A stretch of 64,000 bases of DNA. Source: a virus (lineage: Duplodnaviria > Heunggongvirae > Uroviricota > Caudoviricetes). Position numbers and translations under genes: made by a program. The stretch is taken from the IMG/VR virus record IMGVR_UViG_3300028833_002727, one strand, 5' to 3'. This document shows, one piece after another, positions 9,486 through 64,000 of this stretch (its first letter is position 1; every line of letters starts with the position of its first letter). The notes under the pieces are model-generated. The model saw only the letters and a program-made list of their open reading frames with translations, did no database searches and was not told the origin of the DNA.

Positions 9486-9532
9486 ATCAAAAAAGATAAT
9501 AAAAATAGTATTTATAGTTAAAAGATTGCACA

Positions 9533-10462: not shown

Positions 10463-10464
10463 TT

Positions 10465-13440: not shown

Positions 13441-13465
13441 AACAATATAACAACTTTACACAACA

Positions 13466-18286: not shown

Positions 18287-18287
18287 T

Positions 18288-21508: not shown

Positions 21509-21581
21509 TAAATTACAAATTTTTCACTTGCATTATTATTATTAGTAGCCGCCATCAGACTCACAGCCAGCAGAAGTGAAG

Positions 21582-22331: not shown

Positions 22332-22344
22332 AATTTTTCAAATT

Positions 22345-23133: not shown

Positions 23134-23401
23134 ATATTGCCATTATATTCTCTCTCATAAACCCAAAAAATGTATATGAACCGTTTTTGGTATATATTTT
23201 AGTTGTGTATCCTTTTTCATCTGTATCGACTTTGATTATTTCATCCATTTCAATTTCGGATGTTGAATTGCACTCAATAAATCTTCCGCAACTATCTCCA
23301 GGACGTAAATTTTTAAATTCATTCCATTTTTGACACACCGCAATGGACGTTAAGGATAATGCCACAAAAACAAAAATACCGAAAATTATACCTGTTATCA
23401 T
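23123..23401 (-). CDS. Small membrane protein
   Basis: N-terminal hydrophobic helix. Overlaps the upstream stop. Confidence 0.35.
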   Translation of the reverse strand: MITGIIFGIFVFVALSLTSIAVCQKWNEFKNLRPGDSCGRFIECNSTSEIEMDEIIKVDTDEKGYTTKIYTKNGSYTFFGFMRENIMAIYDD

Positions 23402-23426
23402 AATTAAAACTGTTATTTTGCGTGAA

Positions 23427-24011
23427 TTAGTCGATAAGATCAGAGAAGTCAGTTACCCCAATCTGGATGAAATATACAATTAAAAAATTAATCAGACGAA
23501 TAACCATGTGATTATGAATAGTTGTACACTCTTTAATATCACTACAAATACCATTCAGAGAATCAATAACATTATTATTGCGTTCACCTTTCAAAAAACC
23601 ATCAAACGAAAAATCAATACACCCGCAATATCTTTTCTCATGGAAATTACGGTTGATGTAGTTACTTTTTACAATTTCTAGGATATGATTTACTTTTTCT
23701 TCGAATGTTTTATCATTATTCTCATCTACACTGATTAAATAAAGTATACAATACCCAAGTAAATCGTATAAATCGTTTTTACGTAATTCACGACTGTTTT
23801 TAATACGTGATAATTTATCATCCAAGCGAATGCATATACTATCAGTTGCATCACCTTTATAAAAAACATTGATTGGTGCTAATGCTGAATTACCATATCG
23901 TTTATTTTTCTCAATTAAAACACTCTTGATGGATGCAACAACTTTATAACATGCTTCCACGTTAATTTCCAATGCTGGCTCAGCAGGCCAGTCTAAATCT
24001 TGTAATCCCAT
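23427..24011 (-). CDS. Putative MazG-like all-alpha nucleotide pyrophosphohydrolase
   Basis: KNKRYGNSALAPINVFYKG...IRLDDKLSRIKN...DLYDLLGYCILYL resembles MazG-like phage NTP-PPases. Confidence 0.35.
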   Translation of the reverse strand: MGLQDLDWPAEPALEINVEACYKVVASIKSVLIEKNKRYGNSALAPINVFYKGDATDSICIRLDDKLSRIKNSRELRKNDLYDLLGYCILYLISVDENNDKTFEEKVNHILEIVKSNYINRNFHEKRYCGCIDFSFDGFLKGERNNNVIDSLNGICSDIKECTTIHNHMVIRLINFLIVYFIQIGVTDFSDLID

Positions 24012-24067
24012 ATAAATTCTTATTTTAATTTTCCTAAATATACAGAAAAAAACTTATAAGTACAAAA

Positions 24068-24095
24068 AAAAAGAGGCTTCGAAACCTCTTTTTAT
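24068..24095. terminator. Bidirectional rho-independent terminator
   Basis: Hairpin AAGAGGCTTCGAAACCTCTT flanked by an A-run and a T-run. Confidence 0.6.
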
Positions 24096-24099
24096 TTTT

Positions 24100-24615
24100 T
24101 TAGAACCATAAATTTTTCCAATTCTTAAACATTTCCCCAAACTCTCCGAACATATCTCGGTTCGCATAGAACGTTTCACGTAAACTTTTGGTTACATCGT
24201 CAATTGCCTGGTTGATGTCGGTTTTGTGGTTAGCGTACTCCTCTTTGGTAATTTCCTTACCATCCTTTAACAACTCGTCAATTTGGAGAGCAGTATAAGT
24301 TTTGAACTCAGTCTCAGCCTCACGTACTTTGTATGTGGCGGTATATTCAAGGAATACACGATTCATTACAACACCTACAACTTTGTACGCCTTGTTACCA
24401 ACGAGGTAATATTTACCAAGTACGTCGTGTTGCTTGCGGAGAAGTGCTTTATCAGCCTCTTTTGCAGCCTCGCGTTTCTCTGTTTCACGAGCCTCTTCAC
24501 GAGCGGCAAGTTCTTCCTCGATTTGTTTACGTAAACCTTCAGCTTCTTTCAAGCCAGTTAATGCATTCAAACGCTCTTGTAATTCAGCGTCAGTTAATTG
24601 TTTAATTTCCTTCAT
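24100..24615 (-). CDS. Hypothetical coiled-coil protein
   Basis: ORF with an E/K-rich N-terminal helix. Confidence 0.4.
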   Translation of the reverse strand: MKEIKQLTDAELQERLNALTGLKEAEGLRKQIEEELAAREEARETEKREAAKEADKALLRKQHDVLGKYYLVGNKAYKVVGVVMNRVFLEYTATYKVREAETEFKTYTALQIDELLKDGKEITKEEYANHKTDINQAIDDVTKSLRETFYANRDMFGEFGEMFKNWKNLWF

Positions 24616-24705
24616 TTTTGTATATGTTTTTAAGTTAAGTTTATTTTTTCTTTCATTTTTATTAGCAATTTGTGTGCCATTTGAAATTTCATGACATTTT
24701 GTCAG

Positions 24706-25209
24706 TTATAACGTCACAACACTGCCAATTATCTTACCATTTTCAAATTTTTTGACAATAAATTTGTCACCCTCTTTGGCATTATCAAGATATACAACGA
24801 TACTTGTTTGTGTTTTATCGGTTAGTTTACATAAGTATGCCCCCTCGCTATATGTTTGAACAACAACACCAGTCATACCCAACAAAGTATCCTTGGTATA
24901 GAGTTCTTGTTCTTGGTTTAATTGTTGAGGAATATACAACGGCTCACGCCAAGTAATCACCATCAACAAAAATCCGAGCGGCAAACCGATAAGAAATATA
25001 AGTACCAAAGTTGATAATAGTGTTGGTGCATCACCCCACAAGTGAAGATTATACTCACTAATTGCTACATACGTCCATGAAGCACTTGTGGTAAATGAGA
25101 GAAGCATACTTACGAGTATGTTCACGTATTTGTTAGTAATATCCACTAATCCATATAATACCAACAGTGTGGATGCAAACAATGCAACTATGTAATTTAT
25201 CGGTATCAT
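24706..25209 (-). CDS. NfeD-like membrane protein (TM helices plus a C-terminal OB-fold-like barrel)
   Basis: 3-4 N-terminal TM helices. A C-terminal GMTGVVVQTYSEGAYLCKLTD...KEGDKFIVKKFENGKIIGSVV beta-rich tail typical of short NfeD (YuaF-like). Confidence 0.4.
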   Translation of the reverse strand: MIPINYIVALFASTLLVLYGLVDITNKYVNILVSMLLSFTTSASWTYVAISEYNLHLWGDAPTLLSTLVLIFLIGLPLGFLLMVITWREPLYIPQQLNQEQELYTKDTLLGMTGVVVQTYSEGAYLCKLTDKTQTSIVVYLDNAKEGDKFIVKKFENGKIIGSVVTL

Positions 25210-25210
25210 A

Positions 25211-25519
25211 TTAGAATTCTACTTTTGGAATATACTTCTCAGTATTCTTATTTTTACCAATGGAACGTACGTTGTTAACAATAAGTCGATAATCAGTATC
25301 ACCAAACTTAAAATTAACACCAAGACACACGTTTGATGAGTTGAAAAGATATGTTTTATTTGGGTGATGACTATCATTCAGAAAATCATATTTCTTCATG
25401 AGGACATCATATATCTCATTATCAGTAGGAAAACTATCAAACTCAACAAAATCGTAACCAACTGGACGAGACATATTGGTTGTGTAGTTCATTAAATGTA
25501 AATCAAATGCGTATATCAT
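25211..25519 (-). CDS. Hypothetical protein
   Basis: ORF in the co-directional early block. Confidence 0.35.
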   Translation of the reverse strand: MIYAFDLHLMNYTTNMSRPVGYDFVEFDSFPTDNEIYDVLMKKYDFLNDSHHPNKTYLFNSSNVCLGVNFKFGDTDYRLIVNNVRSIGKNKNTEKYIPKVEF

Positions 25520-25523
25520 ATTT

Positions 25524-25844
25524 TTATGTGTATAAGTTCATTTTATCTGGTTTTTTATCTTCCACGACAGGGCGTAAACCTGTAAAATATAGGTAATACG
25601 TATTATCACCTACGGTAAAGTTTACGCAACAATAATGACGCCCATGTTTTGTATCTTTACCACCAGGTGTTGCGCGAGAAAGCCCTTTTTCCTCTATGAA
25701 ATCCTCTTGTAAAAATGATAATTCTTCTATTATTTTTTTTCCTACTTCGAACGGTTCTGGATATTTATCATTTTCAAAGAAAAATTCTCCATATGGCATA
25801 AGATGCCCATTTGTTTCATACCACAAATCGCAAACATATTTCAT
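25524..25844 (-). CDS. Hypothetical protein
   Basis: ORF. Confidence 0.35.
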   Translation of the reverse strand: MKYVCDLWYETNGHLMPYGEFFFENDKYPEPFEVGKKIIEELSFLQEDFIEEKGLSRATPGGKDTKHGRHYCCVNFTVGDNTYYLYFTGLRPVVEDKKPDKMNLYT

Positions 25845-25849
25845 ATTGT

Positions 25850-26470
25850 TTATTTTTTTACAGTATCACAACACTTTGGGAAGTATAACAGAGTAATACC
25901 GTCCTTGTGGATGTCGATACCAGGATATTCTTTGCGGAAACTATCCATATTGAAACCAGTTGATAAGAAATGGTAGCCATTTTTAGTCGGCACCTCAATT
26001 CTTATTTTTTCTGGCACGTCAAATGGAGGTAATGAGTTGATATATGCTCTGATCTCATCACGTTTGTCGGCGTACTCACCGTCTAAGTCGATAAGATATA
26101 AAGCATCAAAGCCTTTTTGTTTTCCACATTCACCGCAAGCGGAGTTAAAACGGCTTGCCAATTCATGCCAGTTTTCTTTACGAATAGACTCAGTGATAAG
26201 CGCAATTGTTTTGAGTGCAACAGATTGTGCATCAAGACAGTTCATCTTGATATACGCACGAGCACGGTTCTTTTCACATTTTTCGATAATGTGTTTCTTG
26301 TACTTATCAAAATCCTTTTTACTGTAGATATAGAAACTCTCTACAGGAATTGAGTATGAACTCAACTCTGGGTTCTCTTTTTTGCGTCTCAAAATCTGTA
26401 CGAAGTAGAAACTTCTTTTATTCTTTTGGAAACGTAGGTTTTTTCTTATTAAATCAAAATTGTCTACCAT
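25850..26470 (-). CDS. Hypothetical protein
   Basis: ORF. It contains a CGECGK motif. Confidence 0.4.
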   Translation of the reverse strand: MVDNFDLIRKNLRFQKNKRSFYFVQILRRKKENPELSSYSIPVESFYIYSKKDFDKYKKHIIEKCEKNRARAYIKMNCLDAQSVALKTIALITESIRKENWHELASRFNSACGECGKQKGFDALYLIDLDGEYADKRDEIRAYINSLPPFDVPEKIRIEVPTKNGYHFLSTGFNMDSFRKEYPGIDIHKDGITLLYFPKCCDTVKK

Positions 26471-26640
26471 AGTTTTTTTTTGTTTTTTTTATCTCCAGTC
26501 CCAATGGCAGTCCAAACATTCAAATCTGTCTACGAACATACCTGCATGGCAATGCACATGTGTTGAACCACAGTTTGGACATATCCACGGATTATCTGGA
26601 TGTAGTTTTTTATTCTCAACTTCTTCTATATCGTCCATAA

Positions 26641-26961
26641 TCAGAATTGTGAAATTTTGTTATATTCCTTGAATGTCATTTTTTGCTCATTATCAAGTTC
26701 AATGGATTCCACTTTACCTTTTGGGCTACGTGTAATACTGATAACTTTCGCGCTGTTTACTGGTACGTAGTTACCGTATTCAAACCACCACTCCATTTCG
26801 GTGAATACATAGTCACCGACTTTAAGGTTATTAAAAGCGGCGCGATTGAGTACCCATTTGATTGGCAGGAATACCAATTGGAAAATGAAATAAATTCCAA
26901 TCCAAACTCCAAAAACGATTGCTCCCATAACGAGAGAAGATGTAATTGATAGTAATGTCAT
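26641..26961 (-). CDS. Small membrane protein
   Basis: Two N-terminal TM helices. Confidence 0.35.
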   Translation of the reverse strand: MTLLSITSSLVMGAIVFGVWIGIYFIFQLVFLPIKWVLNRAAFNNLKVGDYVFTEMEWWFEYGNYVPVNSAKVISITRSPKGKVESIELDNEQKMTFKEYNKISQF

Positions 26962-27003
26962 ATTTGTGTTTGTTTTTTAATGTTGCTTTAAATATACATT
27001 ATT

Positions 27004-27663
27004 TTATAGATATATTTTATTAAGGAATATATACTTAGCAGCCTCTTTGCGTGCCTCTTCTTCACTATTCCACTTTTGATTTCCTCGACTATCAACAATG
27101 TCTACATTACCAACTTTCGCATAGAAATGAGAACCACCAGGCCATTGAATGATACGAACATCATCTATAGTGGCTAAGTGTTGTGCAGGGAAAACAAACT
27201 CATCGGAGAAACGTTGTTCACATATCTCGTAATATTCTTCGCTATAACCAAACTGCTGAACACCATTGGCAAGATAACACTCGCCATATTTCATTAGTGT
27301 CTCTATACGCGTTTTATACGCATCTAACAGCATTTGGTTGGTAGTCTCGAACATTGATAATGGACGAGGTTCACCATGATATATACTATCTATGTAACGA
27401 ATTGCTCCTTCAATATCATTATCCGCGTGCTTCAGGAAAAAATCCAAATGAACATCTTTATCCTTGCAATTAAGAAAACGGCCCAAAGCGGTGCTAAATT
27501 TTTCAGAGAAAGAATTGTACCCACCTTGAAGTATCGGACGTAAAATTCGATCAGTATGCAATGTAACATCATTCAATGTTTTTGCACGAAAATACCAGAC
27601 AGTATCTTCTTTACCGTCTCGTTTACTTTTTAACCTTACAAATTCGTACTTACATTGTTCCAT
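27004..27663 (-). CDS. Hypothetical protein
   Basis: ORF. Confidence 0.4.
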   Translation of the reverse strand: MEQCKYEFVRLKSKRDGKEDTVWYFRAKTLNDVTLHTDRILRPILQGGYNSFSEKFSTALGRFLNCKDKDVHLDFFLKHADNDIEGAIRYIDSIYHGEPRPLSMFETTNQMLLDAYKTRIETLMKYGECYLANGVQQFGYSEEYYEICEQRFSDEFVFPAQHLATIDDVRIIQWPGGSHFYAKVGNVDIVDSRGNQKWNSEEEARKEAAKYIFLNKIYL

Positions 27664-27668
27664 ATGTT

Positions 27669-27983
27669 TTATTTTTTAATTTTTCCGTGTTTGGTAGTAT
27701 ATACACCACGATAACCACCATTTTCCAGTGTATCTCTGTCAATCTCTTTTGCTGTTAATACAAACGAGCCATCTGTTGGTTCAGCCCAATCATCTTTCAT
27801 TGGTATATTGAGTGATGTATAGGCTTCATCAAATTCAGATATGTCTTTATGTGCCAACGTATCTCGAATTATCTGCTTTTCTTTTGCACGTATACTACGA
27901 CGTTTCATGCGATAGAATTTTCTGTTGTCGCCAGTGCAAATACCAAATTTTCTTACTTTTGAATAACTTTTACTCATATTCAT
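27669..27983 (-). CDS. Hypothetical basic protein
   Basis: ORF. First gene of the minus-strand block. Confidence 0.35.
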   Translation of the reverse strand: MNMSKSYSKVRKFGICTGDNRKFYRMKRRSIRAKEKQIIRDTLAHKDISEFDEAYTSLNIPMKDDWAEPTDGSFVLTAKEIDRDTLENGGYRGVYTTKHGKIKK

Positions 27984-28268
27984 TCATTTTATAAATCTGC
28001 TGCAAAGGTAATACATTTTTTTCAAATAACCAAATAAAGTTGAAATTATTTTAAAAAGTCCTATGACCCGGAGGTTACCGGACGTAGCTATCCCGGGAAG
28101 CTTTAATCTAATAATAAAAGAAATAAATAAAGAAAACTACAAAAAGAAATATAAAGGAACGTGCGTTATGTGCATATGTATGATGGATTAGAATTTTTTT
28201 CTTTTTTTAATTTTATCAAGAAAAAAATGTATATTTGTTATGAAATTTGAATTAAATCATAAAGCAAC

Positions 28269-28739
28269 ATGAAAAACGAAAAAGATTTTAGAGATTTACT
28301 AACTATCAAACCGAAAGGATCAGAGGGTTTGAAAAACAGATTAAAAGTATGGATGAAATGGGATTCAAATGATGCAGATTATATAGAACGCACGGATATA
28401 ATGGATCCTCAACAATTATTTGGTAATAAAAAGTTAATTTATTGTTTGGCTTATATTACAACACCTTACGATTTCAAAGGGCACGATTGGAATGATGACG
28501 TATTTGAACATCATATTCCAGATAATAGAGATATAGAAGATTTGGAAGAAATTTTAGCGGACAATGATTTTATGGTTTATTCCGATTGGGGTTCATGCCA
28601 TTCATGTGAAGGTATTGAAATTACATATTATGACGAAAATGAAACACCATTTGAAATAACTTTTGATGATATTCACAAAGAGTTCGAAAAAATGACATAT
28701 GGGGAAATTTGTGAGAAAATAAATTCATTGCAAGAATAA
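28269..28739 (+). CDS. Hypothetical protein
   Basis: ORF. A TATATTTG -7-like box lies at 28230-28237. Confidence 0.4.
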   Translation: MKNEKDFRDLLTIKPKGSEGLKNRLKVWMKWDSNDADYIERTDIMDPQQLFGNKKLIYCLAYITTPYDFKGHDWNDDVFEHHIPDNRDIEDLEEILADNDFMVYSDWGSCHSCEGIEITYYDENETPFEITFDDIHKEFEKMTYGEICEKINSLQE

Positions 28740-28790
28740 AAATTTGTATATTTGAGATAACAAACTGAAAAAATAAGTTAAAATTTAATA

Positions 28791-29807
28791 TTGAGAAACA
28801 TGAGTAAATTAAAGGAAAGTCAAATTGAAGAGGTAAAAGAAGCTGTTGAAGTTGTTGCTCCAAATGAACCAGTTACTCTAACTGAAGATGAGGAACGTGT
28901 GGATCAGAAGGAAATCAACGTAATTGGTAAGCAGTGGAGTTTAATTGAGGGACAGTACATTGTTCCTGTATCTGACACATTCGAACACCTTGAACCAGGT
29001 TATTACTCAATCGGACAAGATATGAAGATTGGTTTGTATTTTGTCAAAGAGAAAGTAAATTTGGATAAGTTGTATCGTATGCCGAACAAAGCAACTGACA
29101 TCATCATGGATGACATTAGCAAGTTCTGGACTTTAAGAGACAGATACAAAAAGTATCATCACGTATTCAAACGTAACTATTTGTTATATTCAGCACCTGG
29201 TACTGGTAAGACATCTCTTATCAACCTTATGTGTCAGGATTTGATTAGCAAGTATAACGGTTTGGTATTTGGTTTAACAAGCGAAGGTGATATTGCAGCC
29301 TTTGTTGACGTAGTACGCCGTGTACGTAAAATTGATGGTGACACACCAATTATCGCGGTAATTGAGGATATTGATAACTTCATCGGAAACGAACATCAAC
29401 GCTCATCCCTTGATACACAACTATTGAACATCCTCGACGGTAACTACAAAATGTCAGATGTTGTAATTATTGCAACCACTAACTATATTGAACGTGTACA
29501 GGCGCGTTATAAGAACCGTCCATCTCGTTTCAATCGTGTAGTTGAATTCCCATTACCAAATGCTGAAAGTCGTAAGATGTATATCGAGAATACTATCTTA
29601 CCTGAAGATATGGATATGTTCAACATCGACGAATGGGTTGAAAAGACTGAGGGTTATACAATCGACCACATCAAGGAACTTATTCAACAGTTCTTCGTTC
29701 TTGGTGAGAGTGAAGAAAACGCATTCGCAAGTGTTGATGCTATGGTTAACAACAACAACCGCCTCCGTAACAAGGATAGTGTAAACCAAAGCAAATTGGG
29801 CTTCTAA
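28791..29807 (+). CDS. AAA+ ATPase
   Basis: Walker A SAPGTGKTSL, Walker B IIAVIEDID, sensor-1 ATTN. Confidence 0.8.
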   Translation: MRNMSKLKESQIEEVKEAVEVVAPNEPVTLTEDEERVDQKEINVIGKQWSLIEGQYIVPVSDTFEHLEPGYYSIGQDMKIGLYFVKEKVNLDKLYRMPNKATDIIMDDISKFWTLRDRYKKYHHVFKRNYLLYSAPGTGKTSLINLMCQDLISKYNGLVFGLTSEGDIAAFVDVVRRVRKIDGDTPIIAVIEDIDNFIGNEHQRSSLDTQLLNILDGNYKMSDVVIIATTNYIERVQARYKNRPSRFNRVVEFPLPNAESRKMYIENTILPEDMDMFNIDEWVEKTEGYTIDHIKELIQQFFVLGESEENAFASVDAMVNNNNRLRNKDSVNQSKLGF

Positions 29808-29883
29808 AATGATTTGAACTTTGGGGTAGCAATACCCCTTAGTTTAAATTAGTAAATAACAAAGTAAAAATAATATCAAGATT

Positions 29884-30417
29884 ATGAGAAATGTACATTA
29901 TGAATTTAGCGGTGACAACACAATCACTGGTACTGTAGTTTCTAAAGGAGAAACATTTACAGCAGAGGCTAAATTATGTCCTGGTGACAAATACTCAGAG
30001 GAACTTGGTAAGTTAATCGTAAAATATCGTCTCGAAATCAAGCAACGTAGACGTGATTTACGTAATACTGAAGAAGTTATCGAGAGATTGAAGGAAATTT
30101 ATGCCGACGAACACAACAACAAAGATTTCAGTGAAATCTCAAAGCACTGGATGCGTTTCATTCAAGATGCTTCTGAGGAACGTAAATCACAACTCGAAAA
30201 CATTGCATTCGCTAAAACTGCATTAGAGGTTTTAAGCCAAGGTGACGGTAAGGTTGAAACAATGATTCGTAAAATTGTTAAGAAACACTATTCAGACGAA
30301 CGCACAATCGGTTTGTTAATCGCATTGGTTAACATGGTACGTGGTGAAGTTAATAGTGAAGTATTAACTGGCGGTGAAAACAATATTGATTACGTCAAAC
30401 ACGTAAAGAAAGTTTAA
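29884..30417 (+). CDS. Hypothetical protein
   Basis: ORF. Confidence 0.4.
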   Translation: MRNVHYEFSGDNTITGTVVSKGETFTAEAKLCPGDKYSEELGKLIVKYRLEIKQRRRDLRNTEEVIERLKEIYADEHNNKDFSEISKHWMRFIQDASEERKSQLENIAFAKTALEVLSQGDGKVETMIRKIVKKHYSDERTIGLLIALVNMVRGEVNSEVLTGGENNIDYVKHVKKV

Positions 30418-30437
30418 TCACTAAACAAAATTTAATT

Positions 30438-31238
30438 ATGGGAAAAGTTAAAAAAGACAGTTTAGGTGACAGAATGAAAAGATACGAGGGTGTAAGCAAA
30501 AACACTCTTGTATCTCGTATGCCAGTAATTCTTAGATTGGATGGCTGTCACTTCCACACATTTACAAAAGGTTTTCAAAAACCATTTGATGATGTTTTAA
30601 TGAAATCAATGAAAGACACTATGAAGTATCTTTGTGAGAACATTCAGGGCTGTGTATTTGGTTACACTCAATCTGATGAAATCACATTGGTATTAGTGGA
30701 TTATCAGAACATCAATTCATCACCGTGGTTTGATAACGAGGTACAAAAAATGTGCTCTGTTGCATCATCTATGGCTGGTATGTTCTTTGCACGTACGTTT
30801 GCATACAACGTACTAATGTCAGAACTCAATGAAGATGATAAACTATTCAAGGTTTATAACAATGCAATTAACCGTGGTGCTTACTTCGATTGTAGAGCAT
30901 TTAACGTTCCACAGAGCGATGTTTGTAACTGTGTTCTATGGCGCCAGCAAGACGCAACAAGAAACTCAATACAAGCATTAGCACAAGCTAACTTTTCTCA
31001 AAAACAACTACATGGCTTGAGTTGTGATAAACTTCAAGATAAACTGTTTGTTGAGAAAGGCATTAACTGGAACAATTTGTCAACTGACAAGAAACGTGGT
31101 TCTGCATGTATTAAGCAGAAGTATTCATTCACTAACCAACATGGGGAGGAAACAATCAGAATGCGTTGGATTGTTGATGATGATATGCCTATTCTCACAC
31201 AAGATAGGGATTATATTGAGAAACTAATTTATTTTTAA
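30438..31238 (+). CDS. Thg1-like protein (tRNA-His guanylyltransferase family 3'-5' nucleotidyltransferase)
   Basis: VILRLDGCHFHTF, KPFDDVLMKSM and FGYTQSDEITLVL align with the Thg1 signatures VVVRLDGRNFHRF, KPND...LM and YGQSDEYSFVF. Confidence 0.8.
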   Translation: MGKVKKDSLGDRMKRYEGVSKNTLVSRMPVILRLDGCHFHTFTKGFQKPFDDVLMKSMKDTMKYLCENIQGCVFGYTQSDEITLVLVDYQNINSSPWFDNEVQKMCSVASSMAGMFFARTFAYNVLMSELNEDDKLFKVYNNAINRGAYFDCRAFNVPQSDVCNCVLWRQQDATRNSIQALAQANFSQKQLHGLSCDKLQDKLFVEKGINWNNLSTDKKRGSACIKQKYSFTNQHGEETIRMRWIVDDDMPILTQDRDYIEKLIYF

Positions 31239-31259
31239 CAATTTAACAAAATACAATTT

Positions 31260-32765
31260 ATGGAATTAAGTTCAATTATTACTATTTGTGTGGTTGTAGT
31301 CTTATTATTGGTGCTCGTTGCACTATCATACGTTAAGACTAGTCCTAACCAAGCCTTGGTTATCTCTGGATGGCCTAAAAAGAAACCTAAGTTTTTAATC
31401 GGTACTGGTGGGCTTCGTATCCCAGGTTTGCAGAAAATTGACAAACTTTACCTTGGACAATTATCTGTAGATATTAAGACTGATACATCAGTTCCAACGT
31501 CTGACTTTATCAATGTAGATGTAGATGCAGTAGCGAAAGTTCGTATCGACCCTAATCACATTGATATTGCAGCAGCAAACTTCCTTGGTAAATCACGTGA
31601 AGACATTGCACGAGAAATTAGAGACTCATTGCAAGGTAACATGCGTGAAATCATTGGTACACAAGACTTACGTTCTTTGAACAATGATAGAGATGGCTTC
31701 TCTAACCAAATTCAAGAAAAGGCTGCGCCAGATATGGCGAAACTTGGTATTGAGATTCTTTCATGTAACATTCAATCAATTACCGATAAGGAAGGATTGA
31801 TTCACGCACTTGGTGCTGACAACACATGTAAGATTACTAAGGATGCTTCTATCAACAAAGCAAATGCGGAACGTGACGTTGCAATCGCTAAGGCTCAAGC
31901 AGAGAAAGAGGCTAATGATGCTCGTGTCGCTTCTCAAACACAAATTGCTGAAAAGAATACTGAATTAGCAGTTCGTCAGGCTGAATTGAAACGCCAGGCT
32001 GATACCCAAAAGGCTATTGCCGACGCTGCTTATGAGATTCAAAAGCAAGAACAAGCAAAGGATATTAACGTGAAGACTGTTGAGGCAGAAACTGCTCGTG
32101 AAATACGTGCGCAAGAGCAACAACGTCAAATTAACAAACTTACAGTTGAAGCACAAGTTGAGCGTGCAAAACAAGAGCAACTTTTGAGAGAGCAAGAGAT
32201 TGCCATCCAGGAGAAAACTCTTCAAGCACAAATTAACAAGAAAGCAGATGCTGAGAAGTATCAGAAAGAGGTTGATGCAGCAGCCGTATTGGAGCAACGC
32301 AAACGTGAAGCAGAGGCTAAACGTTATGAGGCTGAACAAGAGGCAGCAGCAGTAAAAGCAAAAGCAGAGGCTGATTTATTCGCACAACAACAAAAAGCGG
32401 CAGGTATTGAGGCTGTAGGTAAGGCAGAAGCGGCAGCAATTAAGGCTAAAGGTGAAGCCGAGGCAGCAGCAATGGATAAAAAGGCTGAAGCGTTCAAGAA
32501 GTATGGACCAGCCGCTCTTGCAGAAATGGCATTCAACAAACTTCCTGAAGTTGCACGTGAAGTTGCACAACCAATTTCATCAATTAAGGATGTACACGTA
32601 TACGGTACTACAGGCTGTGAGGCTTCTGGTGTCGCAGGTAACGTTCCAGTTTTGATGAAACAAACTATGGATGTAATGCAAGAGGCAACTGGTGTAGATT
32701 TGCGTCAAATCATGCAAGACAACTCAAAAGTTGTTGCAGCAGGTGCTGAGGTAAAACATAAATAA
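31260..32765 (+). CDS. SPFH/band-7 flotillin-like protein
   Basis: N-terminal TM helix, an SPFH core, then a long EA-rich coiled coil (AEAKRYEAEQEAAAVKAKAEA...). Confidence 0.75.
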   Translation: MELSSIITICVVVVLLLVLVALSYVKTSPNQALVISGWPKKKPKFLIGTGGLRIPGLQKIDKLYLGQLSVDIKTDTSVPTSDFINVDVDAVAKVRIDPNHIDIAAANFLGKSREDIAREIRDSLQGNMREIIGTQDLRSLNNDRDGFSNQIQEKAAPDMAKLGIEILSCNIQSITDKEGLIHALGADNTCKITKDASINKANAERDVAIAKAQAEKEANDARVASQTQIAEKNTELAVRQAELKRQADTQKAIADAAYEIQKQEQAKDINVKTVEAETAREIRAQEQQRQINKLTVEAQVERAKQEQLLREQEIAIQEKTLQAQINKKADAEKYQKEVDAAAVLEQRKREAEAKRYEAEQEAAAVKAKAEADLFAQQQKAAGIEAVGKAEAAAIKAKGEAEAAAMDKKAEAFKKYGPAALAEMAFNKLPEVAREVAQPISSIKDVHVYGTTGCEASGVAGNVPVLMKQTMDVMQEATGVDLRQIMQDNSKVVAAGAEVKHK

Positions 32766-34959: not shown

Positions 34960-34995
34960 TATTTGGTTATTTGAAAAAAAAGCAGTATCTTTGCA
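34960..34995 (+). promoter_or_regulatory. Bacteroidetes sigma-A-type promoter. It is copy 1 of a 5-copy ~40-nt repeat.
   Basis: TTTG at 34962-34965 and TAtcTTTG at 34986-34993. The wider sequence AAATATTTGGTTATTTGAAAAAAAAGCAGTATCTTTGCACCAG is shared. Confidence 0.6.
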
Positions 34996-35080
34996 CCAGA
35001 AATTGAATGTCACGGATAAAAAGTTACGCGAAAGCACTTGACTTTTTGAAAAGATCAGTGATATTGAAATTAGAAACAAT

Positions 35081-35192
35081 GGGCTATTAGTTTAATGGAG
35101 TACGACGCGTCTATTAAAGAAGTTTAACTTCGACTCGTACGCTAGAATGCCAGGCAGTCCTGTTGAATGAGGTTCGATTCCTTGATAGTCCG
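35081..35192 (+). ncRNA. tRNA-like element A (112 nt). It has a 7-bp acceptor, a canonical T-arm and an unresolved core with an extra long hairpin.
   Basis: GGGCTAT pairs ATAGTCC. The T-arm is TGAGG-TTCGATT-CCTTG. The element lies ~70 nt downstream of promoter copy 1. Confidence 0.35.
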
Positions 35193-35217
35193 CAAAAAAA
35201 AATAAAAAAAATGCAAA

Positions 35218-35255
35218 AATATTTGGTTATTTGAAAAAATTGCCGTATCTTTGCA
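35218..35255 (+). promoter_or_regulatory. Promoter repeat copy 2
   Basis: TTTG at 35222-35225 and TAtcTTTG at 35246-35253. Confidence 0.55.
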
Positions 35256-35628
35256 CCAGATTTCAGTAATGAAGTCTACAAGTGGATAAGATTGAAACAA
35301 CGAAACATAGTCGACAGTTTCTATGTGGGGAGTGTTGGAAGAACAATAAATCCACACCAATGTGTTCTTTGACGTATTGATTGACTATAGAAAAAAGACA
35401 TGGAACGGTTGGGAATACCTCTCAACCACCAGATGCACCTGTTCCACGTTGTGAAACGCATTTGGGTTCGTCCTTTTATCTATTATATATATTATAAGGT
35501 GTAAGACTTGGCGAAATGTTGGGAATGAAAAGAAGCATTGATGAGTGTATATAATGATAATTGAAATAAACATTAAGGAATATATAACTGTAATTAAACC
35601 TTATAAAAAACTTAGTTCAGTTCAACTT

Positions 35629-36397
35629 GGCGCTGTGGTGGAATTGGTAGACACGAGGGACTTAATTCGTAATTGATTGATTATCAATACATTACAATTT
35701 GAGTGATACGGCACGAAAGTCCGTATTAGAACCTACCTAATTCGGTAGAAGTCCGTTGAGTATGTGTAGTATCACTTGTTGATGCAATAATAATGCGACA
35801 CTCATGTGTCACAGAGGCGGTTGAGAACCCGCCCGCATACAAATCCCATAGCATAAACAAAGATATGTGTGAGGGTGCTAAACAATAATGTATACGGAAA
35901 ATACCGAGCCAATATGCTATGCAAGGATGCTTCTGTTATAATAATCCATATCACTGTGGATGTTCGACGTTCACTCGTCGTGGAAAACAGTTTTAGACGT
36001 AAAAAGCGAAGTATAGTGATAGTGCGTAGAGACTTTACAGTAGGAACCTAAGTTAGAATTGTTATGTTAGAACGAAACTCGCGATCAATTGAGGGTATGT
36101 GTATTGCCGTTGATGATTGGTAACCATCTGATGCTTCGAGCATAAAAACGCCATGTTGCATGGAACGCACACAAATAGTAGAGGAGAGTGGCATAACAAC
36201 TTGCAAGATTCTAATATGGTTTAGAGCAAGTCCAGACTACAACAAACAACAAAACGGGTTTGACTCCCTTAGTAGGCTAACGACCCGCTGAACGAGAAAT
36301 CGTTATACGATGCTGTTGTTTGGCTATGGCAACATAGAGTAGTATGAAAATCCCTTGCCCAGTGATGGGCGTGCCGGTTCGAGTCCGGCCAGCGCTA
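35629..36397 (+). tRNA. tRNA-Leu(UAA) interrupted by an intron. Exons are 35629-35663 and 36347-36397.
   Basis: The 5' exon is GGCGCTG-TG-GTG-GAATTGGTAGA-CAC-G-AGGGA-CTT. The 3' exon is AAAA-TCCCT-TGCCCAGTGATGGGCG(long variable arm)-GCCGG-TTCGAGT-CCGGC-CAGCGCT-A73. The intron sits between U34 and A35. Confidence 0.7.
35664..36346 (+). ncRNA. Putative group I intron (~683 nt, no ORF) in tRNA-Leu(UAA)
   Basis: It lies at the canonical cyanobacterial/plastid trnL(UAA) position. The 5' exon ends in U and the intron ends in G. An IGS-like AAGTCC (35716-35721) is complementary to the exon GGACTT. A P7-like CAGACTA lies at ~36228. Confidence 0.5.
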
Positions 36398-36540
36398 CAA
36401 ACCTCCTTTCGTTAAAAACTCCTGGGTTTTCAGAGTTTCCAAATCTGGTTAGCAGAAGCCCTTTCTTTTTTTAAAAAATTAACAAAAAAATGTAATACTT
36501 TTCGAACTTTACAAGTATTTATTATAAAAGAAAGTAAATT

Positions 36541-49440: not shown

Positions 49441-49478
49441 AATATTTGGTTATTTGAAATAAAAGTAGTATCTTTGCA
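49441..49478 (+). promoter_or_regulatory. Promoter repeat copy 3
   Basis: TTTG at 49445-49448 and TAtcTTTG at 49469-49476. Confidence 0.55.
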
Positions 49479-59259: not shown

Positions 59260-59623
59260 ATGGGGCTGTTTGGCTTTGACTGGAAGATTGATACGATTGT
59301 AAGCATGTAGAGAATGAGAAATCTCTTTAAAAGACTTGACAACACAATAAATGGCGAAAGAACTTACGCTCTTGCTGCTTAATCGAAGCACAGTAGATTA
59401 ACTTTTTCAGATGCAAGGCATTTGAGCAAGACATCACTCCAAGCCGAGTCTGTGGGCTTAATGGATATAGTGGTGCTGGAATACATAGAATAGATGTTAC
59501 ATGCTGTGATGTAATGTTGAAGTTTTAGCAGATAAGGTGACTTTTGATGGTTTGAGTCGTATAGTCGCTCGAAAATCTAAATCAAACTAAACATGTAGAA
59601 AGCGAAAATATTACTTGCAACAC

Positions 59624-59650
59624 ACGGGTTCGACTCCCGTCAGCTCCACC
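59624..59650 (+). other. Isolated tRNA 3' fragment (T-arm plus acceptor 3' strand plus CC)
   Basis: ACGGG-TTCGACT-CCCGT-CAGCTCC-A-CC. No complementary 5' half in the window. Confidence 0.4.
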
Positions 59651-59655
59651 TACAT

Positions 59656-59729
59656 TCTCTCATAGCTCAACTGCATAGAGCACATTTCTCCTAAAAATGG
59701 GGTTCCGAGTTGAAGTCTCGGTGGGAGAG
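59656..59729 (+). tRNA. tRNA-Arg(CCU) with a non-standard T-loop TTGAAGT
   Basis: TCTCTCA/TGGGAGA. GCTC-AACTGCATA-GAGC. CATTT-CTCCTAA-AAATG. CCGAG-TTGAAGT-CTCGG. Confidence 0.6.
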
Positions 59730-59748
59730 CAAAAATTTTTATTTTATA

Positions 59749-60359
59749 TGGCAGAAAACAAAGATTGGACTGGCAATAGTCGTTCGGTATATGGAACAAT
59801 CGGAGCAAGCAATCATACAGAAGGTGAACGCGAGGAAAATGACTATTACGCAACATCGCCGATTGCGATGGAGTTGATATTAGAGAAAGAATCATTTAAT
59901 AAAGACATTTGGGAGTGTGCAGCAGGTGGAGGACACTTATCAAAGGTATTACGCAAACATGGACACAATGTTCGTTGCAGTGATATTATAGATAGAACTG
60001 GTGACACTGAAATACTTGACTTTTTGACGTACAAAGGTACATGGGATGGTGATGTTGTTACCAATCCGCCTTACAAATACGCTCAAGAGTTTGTTGAAAA
60101 GGCATTAGAGATAGTTCCAGATGGTAACAAAGTAGCAATGTATCTTAAACTTACTTTTCTGGAAGGTAAGAAGCGTCAAAAGATGTTCAAGAAATATCCA
60201 CCTAAATACGTTTATGTTGCCGCAGGGCGTATGGGGTGTGCCAAAAATGGTGAGTTTTCTGATATGGAACATGAATATGAAGCGGGCGCAGTGGCATTTG
60301 CCTGGTTTATATGGGAAAAAGGTTACAAAGGTGAGCCAATAATAAGGTGGTTTAATTAA
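59749..60359 (+). CDS. N6-adenine DNA methyltransferase (small; motif I before motif IV)
   Basis: ECAAGGGHL (motif I) and VVTNPPY (motif IV). The start is placed downstream of the tRNA overlap. Confidence 0.7.
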
Positions 60360-60394
60360 AATCTTGGAGAAATCTGAGATTTTTTTTTTATTTT

Positions 60395-60430
60395 TTTTTG
60401 GTTATTTGAAAAAAAAGTATTACCTTTGCA
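60395..60430 (+). promoter_or_regulatory. Promoter repeat copy 5, driving the TonB-dependent receptor gene
   Basis: TTTG at 60397-60400 and TAccTTTG at 60421-60428. It shares TTTGGTTATTTGAAAAAAAAG with copies 1-4. Confidence 0.6.
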
Positions 60431-60456
60431 GCAGAATTTAAAAAACAATGTAAAAT

Positions 60457-62580
60457 ATGAAGAAAATTTTTGTCTTTCTGATCGGAATTTTGTTTTCCGT
60501 ACAAGCGTTTTCTCAGGTTAACGACACAATCAAAAACCTGACACTGGATGAGGTAACAGTTACCTCGATGTATCGTTCTAACACCACCGACATGGATGAG
60601 TTGAAGGTTGACGTTATCAACCATGTAAATGTCGGACAGGAACCGTCTCACATGTTTAAAACTATGCCGTCTATCTATGCGCGTAGCGATAACGGTACGG
60701 AGTTTGGTTATGGTTACTACTATATTCGTGGTTTGGATCAGACTCGTATTAACGTAACATTGGATGGTATGCCGTGGAATGAGGGCGAAGACTTTGGTAC
60801 TTATTTTGCAAACTCCCCGGATTTAATGGCAAGTATGCACAGTGCAAAGGTTGAGCGTGGTACAAGTTCAAAAACGAATGGTGTATCAGCAGCAGCAGGT
60901 AATGTTAACTTGGAGTCCGTAAATTTGCGCCAGGACACGCTTTCTTATGTCCAAGGTATGTACGGTGGGGATAACACCTATAAAGCCAGCGTAGTGTACA
61001 ATATGGGGCTTAAAAAGGGTTTTGGATTACACCTTAAAGCCACTACAAGCCATACGGATGGTTATCGTAGTAATAGTTGGAATAATTCACATGCGTTTAC
61101 TGCTAAATTTGGCTACTATTTCAATGATAGACACTCGATTGATGTGTTAAGCATTAACGGTTATCATAGTAACTGTCAGGGATGGATTGGCTCAACAAAA
61201 GCAGAGTTGGACAACGACGCGCGTGCCAATGGTAACACAAAAGATGAAACTGATAACTGGATTCAGACTGTTAATAAAATCCAATATAAGGGTTGGTTGA
61301 CTGACAACACACTGTTGAGTGCATCTGTATATCTCCAATATCAAACAGGTAGTTATCGTTTCGACCATGATAATTATTGCTATCATGCTATTCTTGCAAC
61401 TCCATATACAGACGATGGCGGAGTATATCATCCATATGGTGATTGGGCTGTGAATCCTGGTACAATTTATGATTACGGATTGACACATTATTTGTATGGT
61501 GGTAACGTAGTTGCACGTAGTACTGTTGGCATATTTGACATCTATGGCGGTGTAAACGCATATGGCTTCCAACGTGAGCATTTTATGGATGAGCGTAATA
61601 AATCCCATTGGAAAAATGTTCATGTTTCGGAATACTATGATAACATTGGTTATAAAACCGATATTAACGTATTCGCAGGTACAACAGCACACCTTGGTAA
61701 TTGGACACTTGGCGCGAATTTACAATACCGTCATGTTGATTTCTCTTATACAGATAAAATGAACAATGTACATTTATCTAGTGGTGACATGAAAACTAAT
61801 TGGAATTTCGTAAATGGTGGTGTTGACATTACCTATAATATCAATAAAAATCATCATATATATGCAAAATTAGCAGTATCTAATCGTGAGCCGATGCGTA
61901 GTGATATGTTCGATGGTAATGAACGTATATATCCTGATTCTTCGGGTGATATTAAATTTACTAATGAACTTAAATCAGAATTAGTACATGATGTGGAACT
62001 TGGATGGGAAGGTAAAGGTTCTATCTTTAAAGCGAACGTGAACCTCTATTACATGCATTTCAAGAATGAGTTAATTCTGAATGGTAATCTTGGTTCGAAC
62101 GGACTCCCTGGGCACGTAAATGCAGATAACAGTTTCCGTACTGGTGCAGAGGTATCGTTTGATGTTGAACCCGTAAAAGGTTTACACTTTGTAAATTCTA
62201 CATCTTATGCCTATGGAAAAGTGAACAAAGCGAATGTATGTAACAATGCTACTCACATTTTCTTCCCTGCATGGACGTTGTTCCAAGATATTCACTATGA
62301 TACGAAAGTTGGTGATGTAGCGGTTACTGTAGGCGCTAACTATGACTTGCGTAGTAAAATCTACCTTGATTTGGATAACCAATATTCGTTGCCTACCAAT
62401 ATGGCACTTAACGTATATGGTAGTCTTACATTCCGCGATAGAATTGAGTTGTCGTTGCACCTCAACAATATCACAAATCATGTGAATTACTCTTATGGTA
62501 GTGTGAATGGTAATGGTGACATTCTGTACGTACAGGAGTCTAAATTCAACTGCCTTGGTAGTGTAAAGTTCTACTTCTAA
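60457..62580 (+). CDS. TonB-dependent outer-membrane receptor
   Basis: Signal peptide. Plug-domain motif IRGLDQTRINVTLDGMPWN. Long beta-barrel region. C-terminal aromatic residue F. Confidence 0.8.
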   Translation: MKKIFVFLIGILFSVQAFSQVNDTIKNLTLDEVTVTSMYRSNTTDMDELKVDVINHVNVGQEPSHMFKTMPSIYARSDNGTEFGYGYYYIRGLDQTRINVTLDGMPWNEGEDFGTYFANSPDLMASMHSAKVERGTSSKTNGVSAAAGNVNLESVNLRQDTLSYVQGMYGGDNTYKASVVYNMGLKKGFGLHLKATTSHTDGYRSNSWNNSHAFTAKFGYYFNDRHSIDVLSINGYHSNCQGWIGSTKAELDNDARANGNTKDETDNWIQTVNKIQYKGWLTDNTLLSASVYLQYQTGSYRFDHDNYCYHAILATPYTDDGGVYHPYGDWAVNPGTIYDYGLTHYLYGGNVVARSTVGIFDIYGGVNAYGFQREHFMDERNKSHWKNVHVSEYYDNIGYKTDINVFAGTTAHLGNWTLGANLQYRHVDFSYTDKMNNVHLSSGDMKTNWNFVNGGVDITYNINKNHHIYAKLAVSNREPMRSDMFDGNERIYPDSSGDIKFTNELKSELVHDVELGWEGKGSIFKANVNLYYMHFKNELILNGNLGSNGLPGHVNADNSFRTGAEVSFDVEPVKGLHFVNSTSYAYGKVNKANVCNNATHIFFPAWTLFQDIHYDTKVGDVAVTVGANYDLRSKIYLDLDNQYSLPTNMALNVYGSLTFRDRIELSLHLNNITNHVNYSYGSVNGNGDILYVQESKFNCLGSVKFYF

Positions 62581-62590
62581 ACAGGAAAAT

Positions 62591-62848
62591 ATGAACGGAT
62601 TTGTAGAAATCTCATACAGAACTAAACAAATTATCTCGGCAAAATGTTCGGAAGATGATATGTATGTACATTGCCAATGTGGAGGTTCTGATGCGCGAGA
62701 AGCAACTGATGAAGAGGTTAAGGAAAACGCAGATTACTACGCTACTCATGGTGAATGCAAATTTCATATTTTTGAAGACACCCCCACTGGGTGTGGATAC
62801 TATAGCAGAGACTGTTTAGTTTGCGGACGACATATTGGTTTAATTTAA
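62591..62848 (+). CDS. Hypothetical Cys-rich protein
   Basis: ORF containing CQCGG and CLVCGRH. Confidence 0.35.
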   Translation: MNGFVEISYRTKQIISAKCSEDDMYVHCQCGGSDAREATDEEVKENADYYATHGECKFHIFEDTPTGCGYYSRDCLVCGRHIGLI

Positions 62849-62861
62849 AAAGTGAAATAAT

Positions 62862-63980
62862 ATGGGAAAATTTACTTCATGGGATATAGGTGTTGTTTTC
62901 GGGGGTTATTGCCCAATGCATCAAGGGCACCTCGAAGCAATCCTTAAAGCCAAAAAAGAATGCCGTAACGTATTCGTTGTGGTATGTGGATACAATAACG
63001 AACCTCGTGCGAAAGAACTTGGTTTAACACACGAAGAACGTGTTAAATTGATAACTGATTACTTCAAAGGTGATGAGGTAATCCAGGTAATCAGTGTCAA
63101 TGATGACGAGTTACATATCGACCAGAGTGAATCCGACGCAAATTGGAAAATTTGGGTACGTGCGGTTCGTGAACAAATTTTTGAGTTTGGTGAAGGTGAC
63201 GATGATGTATTCTTCTATGTTGGAGAACAACGTTACTATGACGCAATGATGCGTATTTGGAAGGGTAGTTACAATATACCTATTCTTGTTGGATTGAATG
63301 AGAATGGTGAGCGTATCAACGATATTTCCGCTACTAAGTTGCGCCAACATCCACAGAAGTATTGGAACAAAATTCTTCCTCCGTTCAAGGAAAAATTGAC
63401 GAAACGTATCCTTATCACTGGTACAGCGTCTGAGGGTAAAACCACTATGGTTAAAGACTTGGCACGTTATTTCCAGTGTCCGTACACTACCGAGTATGGG
63501 CGTGACTATATGGAAGCACGCAACATGAAGGATCCTGACTTGGGTTTCGAGGATTTCCTAAATTTCATTGTAGGACAAAACCAGTATTACTATAATGCTC
63601 TGAAATCCCCTGCTAACAATGGTATTATTATCTCTGATACTGATAACCTTGTTACTCTTATGTATGCAAGAGCATATGTAGATAATCCAGAAATGAAAAT
63701 CAACGGTAAAGATTATCTTGCATTGTACAATTGTGTAGAGCAGTGCAAAGACAATATCACGTGGGATAAGATTTTCGTTCTTCCTCCAACAAAAGGATTT
63801 GTTGATGACGGTAGCCGTTATATGGGGCAATCAAGTCTGAAAGAGCGTCAAGCCAACTTTGATAAACTTATGAAGTTGATTGAAGATTTTGGTTTGATGG
63901 ACAAAGTAGAAGTCCTCTATAGTGATTTTTCACACAATTTCCAACACGTTAAAGAATATATTGAAAGTTTGTATGTTTGA
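62862..63980 (+). CDS. NadR-like bifunctional NMN adenylyltransferase / ribosylnicotinamide kinase, without the HTH
   Basis: N-terminal (H/T)xGH nucleotidyltransferase motif GYCPMHQGH. C-terminal P-loop ITGTASEGKTT. Confidence 0.7.
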   Translation: MGKFTSWDIGVVFGGYCPMHQGHLEAILKAKKECRNVFVVVCGYNNEPRAKELGLTHEERVKLITDYFKGDEVIQVISVNDDELHIDQSESDANWKIWVRAVREQIFEFGEGDDDVFFYVGEQRYYDAMMRIWKGSYNIPILVGLNENGERINDISATKLRQHPQKYWNKILPPFKEKLTKRILITGTASEGKTTMVKDLARYFQCPYTTEYGRDYMEARNMKDPDLGFEDFLNFIVGQNQYYYNALKSPANNGIIISDTDNLVTLMYARAYVDNPEMKINGKDYLALYNCVEQCKDNITWDKIFVLPPTKGFVDDGSRYMGQSSLKERQANFDKLMKLIEDFGLMDKVEVLYSDFSHNFQHVKEYIESLYV

Positions 63981-64000
63981 GAACATGTCGAAGTGGGCAA

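Follow-up and report, generated by a model that had tools for sequence, protein, structure and literature searches.

A TonB-dependent receptor encoded with NadR and PnuC in a probable Lak-like giant phage and its predicted role in the import of NAD+ precursors

Salvage of nicotinamide adenine dinucleotide (NAD+) by phage-borne genes has been characterized for NARP3, in which a NadR-like enzyme and a PnuC transporter of an Escherichia phage (Bas30_86/87; Sci Adv 2026) import nicotinamide riboside (NR), restore NAD+ and overcome the Sir2-HerA defence (PMC13464706). In such a pathway PnuC imports NR and NadR makes nicotinamide mononucleotide (NMN) and then NAD+ (PMC2330246). Large phages are documented to carry NadR-type genes for the salvage of NAD+ (PMC13464706, PMC11662467, PMC7824862), as an earlier note on the DNA described here had pointed out, and a survey of NAD-synthesizing jumbo phages leaves any TonB-dependent or outer-membrane component unmentioned (PMC11662467). 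A receptor gene of Lak megaphages has also been reported, in a study that called it enigmatic and drew no link to pnuC or nadR (Devoto et al. 2019, 10.1101/356790), and the marine megaphage Mar_Mega_1 (LR745206) encodes a "TonB-dependent receptor (SusC)" for which carbohydrate uptake was guessed, again with no pnuC or nadR link (PMC9723777). Here we describe a 64,000-nucleotide stretch of IMG/VR virus record IMGVR_UViG_3300028833_002727 (the window), the end of which carries an operon that consists of a TonB-dependent outer-membrane transporter (TBDT, hereafter the receptor), a small open reading frame (ORF), a NadR-type enzyme and the start of pnuC.

The earlier note had recognized the receptor and the NadR-like enzyme and had overlooked both the pnuC gene that follows NadR and the functional tie of the receptor to NadR and PnuC. 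We consider it probable that the three proteins import a vitamin B3 precursor from which NAD+ is restored during infection, and we read the system as a NARP3-type pathway that would be extended by an outer-membrane gate of its own. In the searchable literature, which leaves many subscription papers outside so that a prior description is possible, we found no TonB-dependent NR importer and no link between a phage TBDT and NAD, nor did we find a description of NARP3-type salvage that is joined to an outer-membrane importer, of the conservation of this unit in megaphages, of its apparent double origin or of the related Bacteroidota operon.

The receptor gene (60457-62580, plus strand) is complete and encodes 707 amino acids. 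Its product exceeds the Pfam cut-offs for both the Plug domain (PF07715, 36.4 bits against 23.9) and the barrel (PF00593, 66.5 bits against 27), in keeping with what the earlier note had concluded for this ORF. An AlphaFold2 model built from 46 homologues (pLDDT 82.9, pTM 0.82) consists of a plug and a 22-strand barrel, and a Foldseek search with this model places PqqU, YncD and FecA at the top, with TM-scores of 0.75-0.82 across ~700 columns (0.75/0.80 for PqqU and 0.76/0.82 for YncD). The N-terminus resembles a signal peptide (MKKIFVFLIGILFSVQAFS / QVN..., judged from sequence) and residues 30-37 form a TonB-box-like motif, LDEVTVTS, that is also present in bacterial orthologues and in which V33, V35 and S37 are near-invariant among the 46 homologues. 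The C-terminus (...VKFYF) ends in F707, which is likewise near-invariant. The ratio of nonsynonymous to synonymous substitution rates (dN/dS) between the window and its relative L004 is 0.14 for this gene. Among PDB sequences the sole match was a marginal one to BauA (E 1.4e-3), and neither an informative NCBIfam family nor a matching PHROGs family was found. A SusC-type glycan importer is excluded by architecture, as the 707 residues contain Plug and barrel domains only, with no N-terminal extension domain, and as there is no SusD neighbour, the downstream genes being an 85-amino-acid ORF and then NadR. The ligand of the receptor is predicted; fold and sequence cannot tell substrates apart.

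The NadR gene (62862-63980, plus strand, 372 amino acids) encodes a bifunctional NMN adenylyltransferase (NMNAT) and ribosylnicotinamide kinase (RNK). The NadR-like identity proposed earlier is upheld by Pfam matches to CTP_transf_like and AAA_28, with a helix-turn-helix (HTH) domain absent, and by a full-length alignment (residues 3-361) to the L. lactis NadR structure (PDB 6gye, E 1.6e-54); further PDB matches are 8x7f, 1lw7 and 9x6f (E 4.4e-18 for the last). The protein also matches phrog_3462 (E 6.8e-70) and scores 195 bits against TIGR01526, which is under the 341-bit cut-off of that family. It contains the motifs GGYCPMHQGH (H-x-G-H), ISATKLR (ISxTxxR) and GTASEGKT (Walker A), and it diverges from its L004 counterpart with a dN/dS of 0.21. 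The gene for the NR transporter PnuC begins with an ATG at 63973 that overlaps the end of NadR, including its stop codon, by 8 nucleotides, and nine codons are present before the window ends (63973-64000, plus strand). These read MFENMSKWA, which is identical to the N-terminus of full-length PnuC in the relatives L110 and L004, whose flanking DNA is ~96% and ~92% identical to the window, respectively. The L004 PnuC scores 121.7 bits against TIGR01528 (cut-off 42.45) and also matches phrog_1880.

Linkage of these genes extends well beyond the window. The order receptor, (small ORF), NadR, PnuC holds for all close relatives that were examined and is found in L004, L005, L086, L110 and L111, the genomes Lak-A and Lak-B have NadR and PnuC 5-6 kb downstream of the receptor, and NadR and PnuC lie within 8 kb of the receptor in 20 of 21 informative IMG/VR viral loci. 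A survey of cellular genomes detected 431 relatives of the receptor, of which 80 were examined and 77 were informative. Among these Bacteroidota chromosomal loci NadR and/or PnuC adjoin the receptor family in 61 (both in 48, NadR only in 12, PnuC only in one), and 16 have neither. An operon of receptor, PnuC and NadR, with a receptor 28-32% identical to that of the window, occurs across the Bacteroidota, among them Chitinophaga, Mucilaginibacter, Capnocytophaga, Porphyromonas, Saprospiraceae, Prevotellaceae and Prevotella, while orthologues in gut Bacteroidales adjoin an NrtR-like regulator, an ADP-ribosylglycohydrolase, NadR or a PARG-like gene. The 735-kb phage LR756501 has its receptor within an NAD island, which runs NAD synthase, receptor, ORF, PnuC, NadR, lipoprotein and an isochorismatase-type (PncA-like) gene. 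As a separate observation, the cassette of L005 directly follows an NAD-dependent DNA ligase (5656-7830) and is near a Tpt1-type RNA 2'-phosphotransferase (1609-2163), both of which are NAD+ consumers.

The three functions appear to have come together by two routes. The Lak-like clade, which includes the window, has NadR before PnuC, as in NARP3, while the bacterial order is PnuC before NadR. When compared with the Bacteroidota operon pair, the Lak-like NadR and PnuC score at most 93 and 77 bits, respectively, and NadR scores 173 bits against that of L. lactis. The NadR and PnuC of the 735-kb phage score 220-300 and 112-140 bits against the same pair and are in the bacterial gene order, and so the LR756501-type clade looks to have taken the trio en bloc. 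Such a capture was rejected for the trio of the window on the basis of its remote NadR and PnuC scores and its different gene order. The Lak-like receptor, unlike its NadR and PnuC, is of Bacteroidales ancestry; a global search with NadR returned metagenomic proteins only, and a cellular source of the Lak-type NadR and PnuC pair was not identified by it. These comparisons suggest that the trio arose separately in two megaphage lineages, in the Lak-like one from parts of differing ancestry, a conclusion in need of confirmation. The best available case for a joint role of receptor, NadR and PnuC is this apparent independent assembly of their functions.

Under the reading that we favour, the operon of receptor, variable small ORF, NadR and PnuC would be transcribed by the host RNA polymerase from a Bacteroidota-type promoter, and the receptor would be exported via Sec and placed in the host outer membrane by the barrel assembly machinery (BAM). 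There, host TonB-ExbBD would power uptake from the gut lumen, with NR or a pyridine nucleoside or nucleotide akin to it as the substrate, PnuC would carry the precursor over the inner membrane, and NadR would phosphorylate and then adenylate it to give NAD+. This supply may feed NAD-dependent enzymes of the phage and/or offset host defences that deplete NAD+. What the receptor carries, when the operon is expressed and how the phage gains from it are predictions throughout. The wider claim is that megaphages of Bacteroidota assembled a complete envelope-spanning line for NAD+ precursors at least twice, independently, and that this would be both the first TBDT dedicated to NR or NMN, in phages and bacteria alike, and the first active outer-membrane nutrient gate that is installed by a phage, there to serve counter-defence or metabolism; to this we give even odds.

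Several points weigh against this interpretation. Siderophore receptors score nearly as high as PqqU in Foldseek, and the ligand of the receptor is a prediction. NR is small enough for porins, and it is not evident why a TonB-dependent gate would be required. Upstream of the receptor, neither the phage leader nor 11 bacterial loci yielded a riboswitch or another known RNA element, and no known NAD-responsive element is present upstream in phage or bacteria. Linkage has its exceptions as well, as neither NadR nor PnuC lies within 10 kb of the receptor in the Lak megaphage Sonny (L087), the IMG/VR locus L107 is without linkage to either gene, and the 16 unlinked loci among the 77 cellular ones include the majority of the nearest orthologues in gut Bacteroidaceae. 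The NrtR neighbour is suggestive at most, since pentose operons are a frequent target of NrtR paralogues in Bacteroidetes (PMC2330246). Finally, the trees are crude neighbour-joining trees.

The alternative that survives best, although we hold it to be rather unlikely, gives the trio the same role with a substrate other than NR, such as nicotinic acid riboside, NMN, NAD or another vitamin. Members of the PnuC family carry several vitamins and TBDTs mostly take scarce or larger substrates, which makes NMN or NAD plausible, and NR is indicated solely by the TIGR01528 equivalog match of pnuC and the kinase domain of NadR. Nevertheless, the L004 PnuC is over the cut-off of this NR-transporter equivalog, the RNK domain needs a riboside, and the PDB matches of NadR are NR-specific enzymes. 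Uptake of NR or a close relative remains the substrate assignment that we prefer.

Less probable still is a role of the receptor in iron, haem or siderophore uptake, which would serve iron enzymes of the phage (for example radical-SAM proteins, or a haem oxygenase like that reported from Lak phages), its proximity to NadR and PnuC then being coincidental. Homologues are labelled "iron complex outermembrane receptor protein" by JGI, but this is a generic orthology label. Siderophore receptors are numerous among the top fold matches, but the sole PDB sequence match, BauA, is marginal. Devoto et al. list the Lak receptor beside haem oxygenase among "enigmatic" genes (10.1101/356790), and radical-SAM genes adjoin the cassette in L004, L110 and L111; however, adjacent periplasmic binding proteins, FecIR, haemophores or other iron-uptake genes are lacking. 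Coincidence would also have to account for the tie to NadR and/or PnuC in the cellular and viral loci enumerated above and in two independent phage arrangements.

TBDTs are common phage receptors in Bacteroidota, and the protein could instead serve conflict between phages or between phage and host, as a decoy or substitute at the cell surface that changes how phages adsorb or superinfect. Complexes of FhuA with T5 pb5 and with Llp are among the fold matches, and the Sonny receptor is uncoupled from NadR and PnuC. Such a role leaves the conserved linkage in phages and bacterial chromosomes unexplained, and an extra receptor would raise, not lower, the number of adsorption sites. Additionally, TonB box, plug and barrel are under purifying selection, as is expected of an active transporter. 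We rate this role slightly below iron import.

The phage origin of the receptor can be traced in its distribution. The earlier note had called such a gene unusual for a phage, which agrees with its absence from PHROGs families and with a tblastn search that found full-length homologues in 22 of 50,697 deposited phage records. These comprise 15 Lak genomes (38-41% identity), four phages with genomes of 635-735 kb (~29-30%) and, in addition, three short fragments of faecal origin; all 15 deposited Lak genomes have the gene, as do most related viral contigs. A large protein collection yielded 557 relatives, and those of at least 55% identity include proteins from contigs of up to 660 kb; homologues at 58-62% identity sit on contigs of up to 434-443 kb. 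The receptor-NadR-PnuC block recurs in assemblies of other samples, namely L004 (receptor 90% identical in amino acids), L110 (NadR 98%), L111 and L086, where it is followed by phage-type genes, among them those for nucleoside deoxyribosyltransferase-like, DnaJ, methyltransferase, amidase and T4-type prohead protease proteins. The cassette families also occur in Lak megaphages of Prevotella and in other phages of more than 600 kb; the receptor and NadR clades contain Lak-A and Lak-B, and the receptor clade also contains Sonny (660 kb), in which a sigma-70-family gene (r2 + r4_2; L087 12127-13002) comes after the receptor. These protein families suggest that the end of the window comes from a Lak-like giant phage whose hosts are gut Bacteroidota. 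One further contig with a Lak-type receptor-NadR-PnuC block and phage-like small ORFs (L007, JAFRDD010000051.1, GC 0.28) is filed under a "Clostridia bacterium" metagenome-assembled genome (MAG) and looks like a megaphage contig that was mis-binned.

The closest cellular homologues of the receptor are encoded on gut Bacteroidales MAG contigs and are 39-40% identical; these contigs are truly bacterial, with genes for ribosomal proteins S6 and L9, DnaA and similar proteins flanking the homologue. The neighbour-joining tree groups the Lak-like phage receptors (39-90% identity) in a single clade, sister to the gut-Bacteroidales group. The ~40% identity of cellular homologues, the Lak-wide presence and the dN/dS of 0.14 argue that the receptor is an old and maintained phage gene. 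Thus, the earlier note was right to regard the gene as phage-borne and not as part of a host flank, since independent assemblies contain the same block and complete circular Lak genomes carry the receptor, whereas its suggestion of a recent acquisition from the host is not supported, given the distance of cellular homologues, the breadth of the Lak-like clade, purifying selection and the codon scoring described below.

The receptor appears to open a new transcription unit because a hairpin with a U-run and a promoter repeat occur just upstream. The hairpin (60358-60399, plus strand; 11-bp stem, GAAA loop, then the U-run) directly follows a methyltransferase-like gene, folds at -9.5 kcal/mol (z -2.0 versus shuffled sequences) and in L004 carries a strengthening C-G change. 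It is terminator-like and as such would mark the end of the preceding transcription unit; a consensus terminator scan left it unlisted because it has too few G-C pairs. The promoter-like repeat TTTGGTTATTTGAAAAAAAAGTATTACCTTTGCA (60397-60430, plus strand) is located 28 nucleotides before the receptor ATG, with a -33 box TTTG at 60397-60400 and a -7 box TACCTTTG at 60421-60428. Spacing within the cassette is 10, 13 and -8 nucleotides.

Six copies of this repeat are present in the window (28003-28034 on the minus strand; starting at 34962, 35222, 49445, 52802 and 60397 on the plus strand) with the invariant core TTTGGTTATTTGAAA..AA..G...TA.CTTTGCA; the 33-nucleotide core gave two matches at no more than three mismatches, against zero expected by chance. 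The earlier note had described the repeat upstream of the receptor as the promoter of the phage tRNA genes and as phage-specific. The repeat is real and one copy (49445-49476) stands directly before a tRNA-Lys gene (49499), 23 nucleotides downstream; another is 146 nucleotides ahead of tRNA-Phe, and one is ahead of a sub-threshold tRNA-like sequence. Two copies head protein genes, the one before the receptor and the one at 28003-28034, which heads a minus-strand protein-coding operon with its first ATG at 27983, and one precedes an ORF-free stretch. Specificity to the phage holds for the extended spacer but not for the boxes (TTTG, 20 nucleotides, TAnnTTTG), which we take to be the -33/-7 consensus of the primary sigma factor (sigma-A) of Bacteroidota, the host phylum. 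Because the boxes fit this consensus, we regard the repeat as a host-type promoter with a phage-specific extended spacer. A TTTG...TAccTTTG motif is also found directly upstream of the receptor in L005, a 48% relative. The copies at 34962 and 35222 lead into ORF-free DNA (34962-36540) that contains a 112-nucleotide tRNA-like match (35081-35192; 28.6 bits, so under the gathering score of 29) and, ~1.1 kb past the copy at 35222, a tRNA-like 3' end (36369-36398); these may be intron-containing or unusual tRNAs, or unknown RNAs.

The leader and the interior of the cassette vary among relatives. In the 88-90% relatives L004 (7784-9951) and L111 (666-2633) a 2.3-kb insert separates the terminator and promoter from the receptor; the window is without it (60431-60456). 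This insert holds a 356-amino-acid ORF, a radical-SAM protein and a second promoter copy, along with a 61-amino-acid ORF in L004 only, and in L110 the radical-SAM gene is downstream rather than in such an insert. The slot between receptor and NadR is occupied in the window by a Cys-rich ORF of 85 amino acids (62591-62848, plus strand) that has no Pfam, NCBIfam or PHROG match, no signal peptide and no homology to the ORFs in the same slot of relatives (66-118 amino acids, or none). Alignment of the window to L110 and L004 breaks precisely at 62581-62858, while the flanks align at 90-96% to L110 and 89-92% to L004, so that the slot is a replacement hotspot. L110 and L004 share a homologous ORF of 66-68 amino acids there, L111 is empty, and L005, L086 and L007 have other ORFs. 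The gene before the hairpin encodes a DNA-methyltransferase-like protein with an NPPY motif (59749-60359, plus strand; phrog_799, E 1.8e-65) and is given as context only; ATG 59749 is its likelier start because the listed start at 59697 overlaps tRNA-Arg (59656-59730).

A shift in GC content and codon usage from 60.4 kb on, with host-like codons, had been described in the earlier note and was not observed. The receptor and NadR genes have a GC content of 0.39 and a GC content at third codon positions (GC3) of 0.36, which is ~1.3 standard deviations (SD) over the mean of window genes of at least 150 amino acids (GC 0.33, SD 0.04; GC3 0.26, SD 0.08). The methyltransferase-like gene just upstream (GC 0.398, or ~0.40; GC3 0.33) is alike and ~12 genes at 21-33 kb share the values of the cassette, and one-kb GC bins are at 0.35-0.45 from 53 kb on, with no step at 60.4 kb. 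By codon log-likelihood against a gut-Bacteroidales reference, receptor and NadR do not exceed the other window genes in resemblance to bacteria and are only less extreme than the AT3-rich structural block (0.4-20 kb). One could also take the DNA past 60.4 kb for a host flank, for the junction of a prophage or for a chimera made in assembly. This idea draws on GC and GC3 slightly over the window mean and on the bacterial origin of the gene family, and we give it virtually no chance, given the missing compositional step, the recurrence of the promoter repeat elsewhere in the phage, the same junctions with phage genes downstream in independent assemblies, the receptor in complete circular Lak genomes and the ~40% identity of the nearest cellular homologue. 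As a side observation, the window contains two codon classes, with the large plus-strand ORFs at 449-20170 having GC3 values of 0.15-0.23 and those at 20219-32765 and 59697-63980 having values of 0.29-0.39. The operons from the less biased class (from 27983, and the receptor) both start at a consensus promoter repeat, and possibly genes that are read by the host polymerase are less codon-biased than late genes that are served by phage tRNAs.

The remainder of the window has long ORFs on both strands and a low GC content (0.27-0.45 per kb). ARAGORN detects 33 tRNA genes and a transfer-messenger RNA (tmRNA; 59262-59651, tag GERTYALAA) at 37-59.7 kb, to which Rfam adds a few tRNAs; this translation-related island (37119-59730) has small ORFs scattered between the RNA genes, and its tRNAs and tmRNA count towards a phage origin of the window. 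In a DNA-level search of deposited phages the sole match to the window was a 65-nucleotide tRNA-Leu segment. Recoding of TAG to Gln, which has been described for Lak phages, is not evident in the window because TAG terminates just 2 of the 47 ORFs with 100 or more amino acids, and long ORFs stay unbroken under code 11; no suppressor tRNA is present among its tRNAs. An ORF of 1606 amino acids (13466-18286) contains a long degenerate array of 57-nucleotide-phased repeats (families D1, D3 and D12), in which GC reaches 0.44 with a GC3 of just 0.15, and probably encodes a repetitive fibre or surface protein.

If the proposed role is correct, then the gene called enigmatic in the original Lak study gains an explanation, and the NARP3 pathway would be extended in the didermic Bacteroidota by a phage that brings the outer-membrane step and taps NR or NMN of the gut during infection. 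It would also predict a substrate for a widespread uncharacterized family of Bacteroidota TBDTs, with a bearing on cross-feeding of vitamin B3 in gut and soil. Convergent assembly in two megaphage lineages would argue that import of precursors over the outer membrane limits the NAD+ supply of the host. The three-gene unit is directly testable and could be of use in the engineering of Bacteroides phages or strains.

Comparison with described systems places the window as follows. PqqU/YncD and BtuB-type proteins are, like the predicted NR receptor, single-protein TBDTs that import a small cofactor, and PqqU and YncD are its best structural matches; at 11-16% identity their ligand specificity is not transferable. 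The "SusC" label of LR745206 does not suit the receptor of the window, a protein of 707 amino acids with no N-terminal extension and no SusD. Receptors of Lak-A, Lak-B and Lak-C belong to the same family as that of the window (38-41% identity), and the proteins of the LR7xxxxx phages are ~29-30% identical. The chromosomal TBDT-pnuC-nadR operon of Bacteroidota has a full-length homologue of the receptor (28-40%) that is linked to PnuC and NadR and that retains the signal peptide, the TonB-box region and the Phe at the C-terminus. It differs from the window in its order, receptor-PnuC-NadR versus receptor-ORF-NadR-PnuC, and in that NadR and PnuC of the window come from another lineage, only the LR756501-type arrangement having the appearance of an en bloc transfer. 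The window NadR is nearer to that of L. lactis and far from 9x6f, which from its molecule name we take to be the Bas30_86 structure. Counter-defence and NAD+ activity are shown only for Bas30_86/87 and are predictions for the system of the window. What it shares with NARP3 is a phage-borne NadR (NMNAT and RNK, no HTH) with PnuC adjacent in the same order, from which the chemistry NR to NMN to NAD+ would be expected. Whereas NARP3 operates in Enterobacteriaceae and the words "TonB" and "outer membrane" appear nowhere in its description (PMC13464706), the host phylum here is Bacteroidota and the operon is headed by an outer-membrane TBDT.

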